Virus genome (UHGV): UHGV-0104313
DNA length: 64,000 bases
Strand: one strand, 5' to 3'
Source of the DNA: a virus
A model generated the notes under the pieces. That model saw only the letters and a list, made by a program, of their open reading frames with translations. It had not been told where the DNA came from and did no database searches. Position numbers and translations under genes: made by a program. This document shows positions 29,148-31,419 of the stretch, piece after piece (the first letter of the stretch is position 1; each line of letters opens with the position of its first letter).

Positions 29148-29164
29148 AAATTTATTAGAGCAAT
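29148..29164 (-). promoter_or_regulatory. C1-type operator, perfect 17/17 ATTGCTCTAATAAATTT
   Basis: Exact consensus copy overlapping the dmt stop, upstream (minus sense) of the tRNA-tciA-ban operon. Confidence 0.65.
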
Positions 29165-31419
29165 ATACCTAAAACGTCATGAGCTACACCTCGAGTGTCC
29201 CCCTTACAAGACACAGAACGTCTGGCAAAAAGAGGTTCCACTCTGAAGCCACTGTCATGATAAAGCTCTCTGATATTTGGCGCGCCACTGTTAGTAATGA
29301 GAACCTTTGCACCTCGACGATGAGCATCCGTCAACAGAGACACCAGGCGTTTTTGCTCTTCAAACTTAAAGTCATGACCGGAATAGTTCGTGAATCCCTC
29401 TGTATTTGGAAGCGGTTCATACGGCGGATCGCAAAAGATGACATCTCCTTCTCCGGCAGCTTCAATCACCGCTGCAAAATCACCGCATACAAACTCAGAC
29501 CGCCCTTCCGCACCGAGGAAGGCTTCCATCTCCTGTAATGGGAAATACGGAGTTTTATACTTCCCATAACCGACATTGAACTCACCGGCCTGGTTGTAAC
29601 GCGTCAATCCGTTAAAACAATGTCGGTTCAGGAACAAAAACGCCGCTGCGCGATGTAAATCATCATAGACTTGTTTGTTAAACGCATTCCGTACTGCCAG
29701 GTATCCTTCCTGTGTGTTGTAGTCCTGGAAGAAACGATGTGCCAGAGTGATAAGTGAATGCGCCTCGCGTTGCAGAGTCTTGTAAAAGTTAATCAGGTCA
29801 GCATTCACATCATTTAGCAGATTTTCCTGGTATCCGGCATTCATGAAGACAGCTCCGCCACCAACGAAAGGTTCAATCAGGCGCTTCCCTTCTGGCAAAT
29901 AGCGAAAGATTTGTTCCAGAACACCAAATTTTCCACCAGCCCATTTGAATATGGACCGTTCGAATTCTGCCGCTGGTTTAACTTTTCGCTCTTTTGTTTC
30001 ACTTCCTTCTTTCTGCCGACATACGGCCTTAGTAATCCGATCGCCAATCCAGCGCATTACTGGTATTGCCATACTATTGCCGATCGCTTTGTAACGCGGT
30101 CCGTCAGCTGCAAGCATCGCGGCCTCTTCTTCGCTTAAATCTGGATAGTGATTGCGAAGATATGCCAATTCATCTGAATTAACTTTTTTACGCTTTTCCG
30201 TCGGGATCAACGTATGCCCATCAGGAAAACCTTGCAGCCTTTCACATTCGACAGGGGTAAGACGGCGGACAGCTACTTCTGCGTTTCTTACTTCATAGCA
30301 AACAGCTGTTGGATTTTTAGCCATTAGAGATGGTGAAGTATTCTTAGTTGCAGCATGTTGTGTACCGCTCATACGCTCAGGAAAAGCCAATGTAACAAGA
30401 TGCTCATGGCTTTCTTGCTCACGTGCCCGCAATGTACCATGCCCTTCTGACCAAAAACCTGCTCCTGTGCTGCTAAAAACGGCAAGGTCAGTGGCATCTT
30501 TAAAATCTCTTGCCTTTACTGTCGATGCGGTTTCATCGTCAATATATTCCCCAAATGCTGCCATCCTGAAAGCGTTTACGGCTTTCGTCGATTTCATACT
30601 GGGTGGCATGTCAGCGTGTAGGCATGGATTTAGGCTTTCGCCACTGATTGCAGCGCCATTTGCAATAATGGCGGAAGCGATTTCCTTCTTTTTTCGGCTC
30701 GGCGCAATATTCCGGCGCACGCCTTCGAACTCAAAAAGTACCGTTGCGGGATCGAGGTCTGTTCGAGCACTTGCGACAACAAACACGCGTCGGCGTCGTT
30801 GTGCCACTCCGAAGTATTGGGCATCAAGGATTCTCCAGGCCACCTTTCGCTGCGGTCCATAAATACAACCACACTGCGGCCACTTTGGAGCATGGCAACC
30901 GGTTTTGCCATCCCACCGCCAGAACGCGTTACTTTTTCCTGATTCAGGTCGATCACCTGGTTCAAATGGCGCATCTTCTCCAGCCAATCCGGCAAGGAAA
31001 CATCCGAAGGCGTTATCTGCCGATGACAGGACTCCTGGGACATTTTCCCAGACGATAACTGTCGGTTTGAGGAAGGACTCAGACCGTTTGTCGTCAATTG
31101 CATTTGCAAGCTCCACATACTTCAAAGTTAGCGCGCCGCGTTCATCATCAAGCCCACCACGTAAGCCCGCGATACTGAATGCCTGACAAGGCGTACCCCC
31201 GACGAGCACATCAGGGGATTCGATTTCCCCAGCCAGGACTTTTTTGGCAAGTTTTGTCATGTCGCCAAGGTTGGCGACATGGGGCCAGCGGTGCGCAAGA
31301 ACGGCAGATGGAAAAGGCTCGATTTCAGCAAACCACGCCGGACGCATACCCAACGGTTCCCAGGCAATACTCGCGGCTTCAATTCCACTGCAAACAGATC
31401 CATAGCACAGCTCTTTCAC
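29155..31419 (-). CDS. dmt: bifunctional DNA methyltransferase: N-terminal C5-cytosine MTase fused to C-terminal Dam-like N6-adenine MTase, 754 aa
   Basis: C5 motifs [28 protein letters not shown] in N-terminal ~480 aa; C-terminal FKWAGGK...DPPY aligns to E. coli Dam; GTG start overlaps hrdC stop. Confidence 0.85.

Follow-up and report, generated by a model that had tools for sequence, protein, structure and literature searches.

The closest described system is Dmt of bacteriophage P1 (formerly Dam; AF234172 / NC_005856, AAQ14041.1), whose product the GenBank record describes as a 'bifunctional DNA methyltransferase' acting on N6 of adenine in GATC and 'perhaps' on C5 of cytosine. That the P1 enzyme is specific for GATC has been published. 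P1 packaging needs methylation of the GATC sites in pac, and the phage methylase is required for this in dam− hosts (Sternberg & Coulby 1990, as cited in PMC12707154). In a dam+ host, CRISPRi shows dmt to be non-essential.

Each half of the enzyme can also be set beside other methyltransferases. The adenine-specific half has the motifs KWAGGK, NGLxRY, and DPPY in common with E. coli Dam (PDB 2G1P) and T4 Dam, but compared to the E. coli enzyme it forms one part of a longer polypeptide, is encoded by a phage, and is repressed by C1. The cytosine-specific half shares with methyltransferases of the M.HhaI and M.HaeIII type (PF00145) the motif order I to X, the Cys of PCQ, the ENV, QxRxR, and GNS motifs, and the fold; it differs from them in being about 17% identical, in its variant motif I, in an extra loop of ~40 residues, in the long and modular recognition region, and in its fusion to an adenine methyltransferase. 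In its organisation Dmt also recalls the multispecific C5 methyltransferases of the temperate Bacillus phages SPR, phi3T, and rho11, work of the Trautner group (summarised in PMC12707154); these too are orphan enzymes with short exchangeable modules between motifs VIII and IX and a presumed anti-restriction role, but unlike Dmt they have no Dam domain attached.

Identity of the gene and its operon

The gene analysed here lies in a 64,000-nucleotide stretch of viral DNA (UHGV-0104313), the whole of which we refer to as the window. It is a single open reading frame of 754 residues at 29155..31419 on the minus strand, which begins with GTG and contains no internal stop in the open reading frame listing. 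At the nucleotide level it matches the dmt gene of Escherichia phage JL22 with 100% identity and that of P1 (AF234172 66412-68676), which has the same length (2265 bp), with 99.5%; the window and P1 proteins differ by four amino-acid substitutions. The gene neighbourhood is also that of P1 (ban, DnaB-like; tciA, TerB; the tRNA genes; Oban; dmt; hrdC, RdgC family; and uhr), with Pdmt and Odmt identical in the two. We conclude that this is very probably dmt of a P1-family (Punavirus) phage-plasmid, the same gene as in P1, and our confidence at this level covers the whole of the explanation that we propose for it. The fused C5 and Dam-type methylase is an already known gene, described between 1988 and 2004. 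That adenine methylation acts in pac cleavage has been recognised since 1988-1990, and the two-domain nature was annotated in 2004, so that on these two points the present locus adds little. The gene, its operon, and its control sites are located as follows.

29155..31419, minus strand: dmt coding sequence, 754 residues (GTG start; TAA stop at 29155-29157), assigned by nucleotide identity to JL22 and P1
31416..32321, minus strand: hrdC (RdgC-family), the TGA of which runs into the GTG of dmt as GTGA
32314..32598, minus strand: uhr, which opens the uhr-hrdC-dmt operon
32641..32686, minus strand: Pdmt promoter and monovalent C1 operator Odmt/Op68, identical to P1, with the annotation transferred from AF234172
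29137..29164, no strand given: Oban (Op72ab), a bivalent C1 operator, with P1ban/P2ban, running across the stop codon at the 3′ end of dmt

In the uhr-hrdC-dmt operon dmt comes last, and it would be transcribed from Pdmt (−10 at 32641-32646, −35 at 32665-32670), which the C1 repressor, bound at Odmt, would hold shut in lysogens. Odmt (32670-32686) lies upstream of the operon and has one mismatch to the C1 operator consensus, of which the window holds 10 copies against 0.36 expected; two others of these copies, at 29137-29164, make up Oban. When aligned to P1, the stretch 32300-32720 (uhr, promoter, and operator) is identical save for one base. The original prediction had placed the gene behind an operator and had coupled its translation to that of an RdgC homologue. 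The operator has turned out to be the Odmt/Op68 of P1. The coupling fits the overlap of the hrdC stop with the dmt start (…AAG CAG TGA and GTG AAA, sharing GTGA at 31416-31419), where a Shine-Dalgarno-like GGAGAGG lies 7 nt upstream, an arrangement consistent with dmt being translationally coupled to hrdC.

The two methyltransferase domains

The product is predicted to be one polypeptide of 754 residues with two independent AdoMet-dependent DNA methyltransferase domains. Its parts, from the N-terminus, are as follows.

30694..31419, minus strand: C5 methyltransferase core, N-terminal part, residues 1-242 (motifs I-VIII; AF2, Foldseek)
30268..30693, minus strand: target-recognition region, 'P1-type' cassette, residues 243-384 (replaced in the P7, SJ46, and CP059910 alleles)
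30004..30267, minus strand: C5 methyltransferase core, C-terminal part, residues 385-472 (motif IX, GNS of motif X, terminal helix)
29962..30003, minus strand: Lys/Glu-rich linker, residues 473-486; a recombination break between alleles starts just upstream, at residue ~452, the end of motif X
29158..29961, minus strand: Dam-family N6-adenine methyltransferase domain, residues 487-754 (Pfam, NCBIfam, alignment to E. coli Dam)

The N-terminal half matches the Pfam C-5 cytosine DNA methylase family, PF00145, in two stretches from residue 8 (E 1.5e-36, 126.9 bits against a cut-off of 22), the domain spanning residues ~1-472, and it matches the NCBIfam dcm profile, TIGR00675, with 118.1 bits against a cut-off of 100.65. 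Alignment to M.HhaI shows the motifs in canonical order, VIII and IX being separated by the recognition region (II: E32, IV: GGTPC78Q, VI: E125-N-V, VIII: Q207-R-R-R-R, IX: residues 385-399, X: G447-N-S); the codon for the catalytic Cys78 is at 31186-31188. Motif I is SVCSGIEA (residues 8-15) and not FxGxGG, keeping the first Gly alone of the canonical motif, and the same variant is present in 217 of 270 homologues. An accessory loop of ~40 residues (~150-185) separates motifs VI and VIII. We considered a zinc site in this loop (C175-H176...C183-x-C185) and ruled it out, since some homologues lack the loop and its Cys residues are not conserved.

The AF2 model of residues 1-480, made with an alignment of 113 divergent homologues, has a mean pLDDT of 76.9, with values above 90 over most of residues 1-240 and 385-470 and below 50 in the recognition region (about residues 249-377). 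A full-length model made with a shallow alignment of 12 sequences had a mean pLDDT of 34 and was discarded. The best PDB matches to the C5 model in Foldseek are M.HhaI and M.HaeIII (E 1.6e-11, probability 1.00), and the model points to a Class I methyltransferase fold with a small domain, similar to HhaI. Against the profile of the Dcm (CCWGG) subfamily, NF007772, the protein scores 21.9 bits with a cut-off of 710; the match is confined to motif IV, and CCWGG specificity based on likeness to Dcm was for that reason dropped.

The C-terminal half matches the D12 N6-adenine methyltransferase family of Pfam, PF02086, at residues 493-725 (E 1.1e-56, 192.8 bits against a cut-off of 22) and the NCBIfam dam profile, TIGR00571 (249.8 bits against 114.85), and it aligns to residues 4-266 of the 278 of E. 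coli Dam (E 3e-57). It contains FKWAGGK (K492), the AdoMet motif EPFVGGG followed by the catalytic D664-P-P-Y (residues 664-667, nt 29419-29430), and NGLTRY at residues 603-608. Four residues that contact GATC in E. coli Dam align with identical residues here (K9: K492, N120: N603, L122: L605, R124: R607), and three substitutions relative to that enzyme (Y119F, P134G, and R137K) are graded conservative. The NCBIfam equivalog for the host enzyme, NF008152, was not reached (244.4 bits against a cut-off of 441). The Dam half is a member of the Dam family and is not an orthologue of host Dam.

The claim that a C5 and an N6-adenine methyltransferase are fused in this one reading frame is borne out by the motifs, the profiles, and the annotation of P1. 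Both domains score above the curated cut-offs of Pfam and NCBIfam, and on the question of whether one domain alone is intact, both motif sets are present, with motif I in its variant form.

Recognition cassettes, an intein, and position 74

Seven alleles were compared (those of the window, laboratory P1, P7, SJ46, RCS47, OP279344, and a plasmid of turkey E. coli); CP157128 (86.6% identity) contains frame breaks and did not enter the selection analysis. Between motifs VIII and IX a stretch of the protein is replaced wholesale from allele to allele, and the sequences flanking it on both sides agree at 97-100% identity. Four types of cassette are seen (P1 type, that of the window: 143 residues, P7 type: ~61, SJ46 type: ~196, composite: ~250), the composite mixing SJ46-like and P1-like pieces. 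In the 498 PLSDB plasmids that have the gene, the P1-type cassette occurs 257 times, the P7-type 184 times, and the SJ46-type or composite 51 times. The P1-type cassette consists of three sub-modules (residues ~281-319, ~314-347, and ~341-383), each of which recurs separately in other family members by BLAST. By analogy to the Bacillus phage enzymes, we hypothesise that Dmt may be multispecific. The Dam half is exchangeable as well; a common allele of 762 residues is 100% identical as far as residue ~451 and about 68% identical thereafter.

RCS47 and OP279344 carry an insertion of 341 residues exactly at the catalytic Cys, which is absent from the window. Its sequence (GGTP/CFTAGH...LAGAYVGDGY...GYLDTDGT...VVHN/CQAFS, with slashes at the borders) has Hint and LAGLIDADG matches in Pfam, and we therefore assign it as a homing intein of the splicing type. 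It is found in 133 of the 498 plasmid records, together with all three cassette types, and also in six other clusters. The literature searched yielded no report of the cassette variants or of an intein in dmt.

The residue at position 74, next to the catalytic Cys, is Gly in the window and in 200 of 270 homologues (LVGGTPCQ). Trp is found at this position in none of the 270, but it is the residue of the two laboratory P1 strains that have been sequenced (W74), and in this they differ from the window with its family-typical Gly. Across the C5 core, the window and laboratory P1 are separated by two non-synonymous changes and no synonymous change. It is a possibility, suggested by these comparisons, that the reference P1 strain is a C5 mutant; we know of no phenotype reported for G74W in laboratory P1.

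Adenine methylation, packaging, and the probable activity of the C5 half

GATC occurs 250 times in the window against 248 expected and so shows no genome-wide enrichment. The prediction of a GATC-dense pac and origin was upheld by two local clusters.

2043..2225, minus strand: pac, lying within pacA and made up of 4 + 3 TGATCA/G hexamers and one more GATC; predicted substrate of the Dam half
34938..35030, plus strand: oriR GATC cluster of five close sites and a sixth nearby; a DnaA box and the incC iterons (~35037-35135) adjoin it

In the P1 record, 'Dam methylation sites 1-5' are annotated in oriR. A third small cluster of GATC is found at 50948, with nothing notable around it. Control of packaging by methylation, which had also been proposed for this locus, is published for P1 (Sternberg & Coulby 1990, as cited in PMC12707154), and we assign the role to the window gene because it is 99.5-100% identical to those of P1 and JL22. 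During lytic growth, the Dam half would methylate adenine in GATC and keep the seven GATC hexamers of pac methylated. PacAB could then cut the methylated pac, and headful packaging would start even in a dam− host.

A second proposed role, the timing of plasmid replication at oriR independently of host Dam, did not fare as well. The GATC cluster at oriR, annotated as Dam sites in P1, would speak for it, but dmt is behind the C1 operator Odmt and should therefore be kept silent in lysogens, and it is in the plasmid prophage that oriR acts. Host Dam supplies the methylation for P1 plasmid replication, and mini-P1 fails in dam− hosts. That this replication needs methylated DNA was reportedly found by Abeles and Austin in 1987. 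We consider it highly improbable that Dmt times replication in this way. It also seems to us very unlikely that the two activities are delivered as separate proteins, for example with a Dam-only product made from an internal start or a late promoter. The P7 record does predict a late promoter, LPdam2, inside the gene and upstream of the Dam half, and there are viable phages in which the gene is split (vB_EcoM-673R5, and dmt-A/dmt-B in the CRISPRi data). However, the −10 hexamer predicted for P7 (TGAACT) is weak, the P1 record has no internal promoter save P1ban/P2ban at the 3′ end, and the reading frame is uninterrupted at ≥80% coverage in 467 of the 498 plasmid records. The fusion of C5 and Dam is also present in at least six other 50%-identity clusters, with distant clusters at 52-67% identity, and an extra short product would not exclude full-length Dmt. 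In one relative (P0163), the same C5 core is joined to a different kind of adenine methylase.

The evidence favours an active C5 half. We suggest that the N-terminal domain most probably works as an m5C methyltransferase, that the cassette lying between its motifs VIII and IX would determine the target, and that it would probably serve to methylate progeny DNA in advance and so shield it from Type II restriction in the host infected next. The protection from restriction in the original prediction is to this extent plausible. Were only the Dam half functional, the C5 domain would be vestigial, structural, or DNA-binding, without methyl transfer. Several observations would sit well with such a domain: motif I is non-canonical, the G74W change of laboratory P1 adjoins the catalytic Cys, the phage can do without the gene in dam+ hosts, and the literature searched contained no report of m5C made by Dmt, the P1 record going as far as 'perhaps'. 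On the other hand, the SVCSGIEA form of motif I is itself conserved throughout the family, and the catalytic residues (Cys, ENV, QxRxR, and GNS) are invariant in 16 divergent relatives of 47-64% identity. Relatives of the C5 half number tens of thousands in a search of 1.84 billion representative proteins, the best of them having a core 50-70% identical to residues 4-260. The ratio dN/dS is about 0.1 (0.07-0.19 in most pairs for the C5 core and 0-0.16 for the Dam half, over the seven alleles), which argues against an inert domain. Replacement of exactly the recognition region would have no obvious rationale if the domain were inert, and the intein sits at the catalytic Cys, inteins typically occupying functionally critical sites. 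Overall, we judge loss of the C5 activity to be unlikely.

Building on an active C5 half, we put forward a broader interpretation, which is tentative and to our minds somewhat more likely to fail than to hold. The C5 half of natural P1-family Dmt would be active and possibly multispecific, and its cassettes (P1, P7, SJ46, and composite), together with the Dam half, would be reshuffled in an anti-restriction arms race. The cytosine activity could have gone unnoticed because laboratory P1 carries a crippling G74W, perhaps selected on Mcr+ K-12 hosts, and the window would then hold the unmutated natural allele. The active site of the window allele is predicted to be intact, unlike, perhaps, that of the reference laboratory P1, and the cassette is polymorphic across P1-like plasmids; with such a natural allele and polymorphic cassettes in hand, whether and where Dmt methylates cytosine is a question that is cheap to answer. 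P1-like phage-plasmids often carry resistance genes in Enterobacteriaceae, and the C5 half could explain differences among them in host range or in escape from restriction.

A separate observation concerns the record AF234173, which lists an 'incomplete dmt'. Spontaneous decay of the gene in a laboratory strain was considered as its origin and ruled out, the record being that of a named mutant, dmt(del)MB.

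Exchange of the recognition cassette and of the adenine-methylase half

The stretch between motifs VIII and IX of the C5 domain of Dmt, the target-recognition region, is a swapped cassette, embedded in flanks that are near-identical among the P1-like phages and plasmids. We distinguish P1, P7, SJ46 and composite types in Dmt, and among the PLSDB records the P1 type occurs in 257, the P7 type in 184 and the SJ46 or composite types in 51. Sub-modules of the cassette also turn up independently in other members of the family. The cassettes are located as follows.

Window 30268-30693: counterpart of the cassette in the window dmt (P1 type)
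L002:3614-3793: cassette of P7
L004:1414-1998: cassette of SJ46
L006: cassette of CP059910

The variation extends to the other domain. Alleles of 762 aa, represented by the database protein P0002 and others, are common; they are 100% identical up to residue ~451, and identity falls to only ~68% over the stretch that starts at the end of motif X and includes the Dam domain (compared with window 29158-30064). The Dam half, too, is thus exchanged as a module, and the break falls at the domain junction. In the representative library, the protein P0163 carries the same C5 core joined to another kind of adenine methylase, of the WATP...GNPPYS type; fusions of C5 and N6-adenine methylases have thus arisen more than once in the family. 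Some NCBI entries for Dmt-type methylases (P0003, P0030 and P0036) are named "multidrug DMT transporter permease", which looks like an annotation error derived from the gene symbol dmt.

The catalytic centre: an intein and residue 74

Some dmt genes encode an intein of 341 aa, with Hint and LAGLIDADG domains, placed exactly at the catalytic cysteine of the PCQ motif. It is present in 133 of the 498 plasmid records, alongside all cassette types, and in six more distant clusters; the window dmt has no intein.

L003:2335-3357: intein in RCS47
L005: intein in OP279344
Window 31186-31188: codon of Cys78, equivalent to the insertion point
L001:6044-6046: codon 74 of dmt in AF234172
L008: Trp74 in dmt of AF234173

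Immediately before TPCQ, both laboratory P1 references (AF234172 and AF234173) have Trp74; the residue is glycine in the window and in P7, and tryptophan is absent at this position from all 270 homologues examined. The C5 cores of the window and laboratory P1 differ by two non-synonymous and no synonymous changes. In the laboratory P1 lineage, Trp74 may thus represent an inactivating mutation.

Split genes, an internal promoter and the 3' end of dmt

In some phages dmt is found as two or three ORFs, and these phages are viable. In vB_EcoM-673R5 (L009) the separate calls are a 5mC methyltransferase, a hypothetical protein and an adenine methylase, and a published P1 gene table (PMC10695390) has rows dmt-A and dmt-B. 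The splits are due either to frameshifts or to sequencing errors. The P7 record predicts a late promoter, LPdam2, within the gene and upstream of the Dam half (L002:3513-3531); its -10 hexamer, TGAACT, is weak, and the P1 annotation has no counterpart.

Window 29137-29164: bivalent C1 operator Oban with promoters P1ban and P2ban, overlapping the last codons and stop codon of dmt

The sequence that closes one C1-controlled operon thereby serves as control region for the one that follows, made up of the tRNAs, tci and ban.

Elsewhere, a segment at window ~51800-54500, in the immI/sim neighbourhood, has a GC content of 35% (compared with ~48%), and only 39% of window 50000-55000 is common to P1-like phages. 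Apart from a weak SH3_3 hit, the ORFs of the low-GC segment have no Pfam match; it may be strain-specific cargo.
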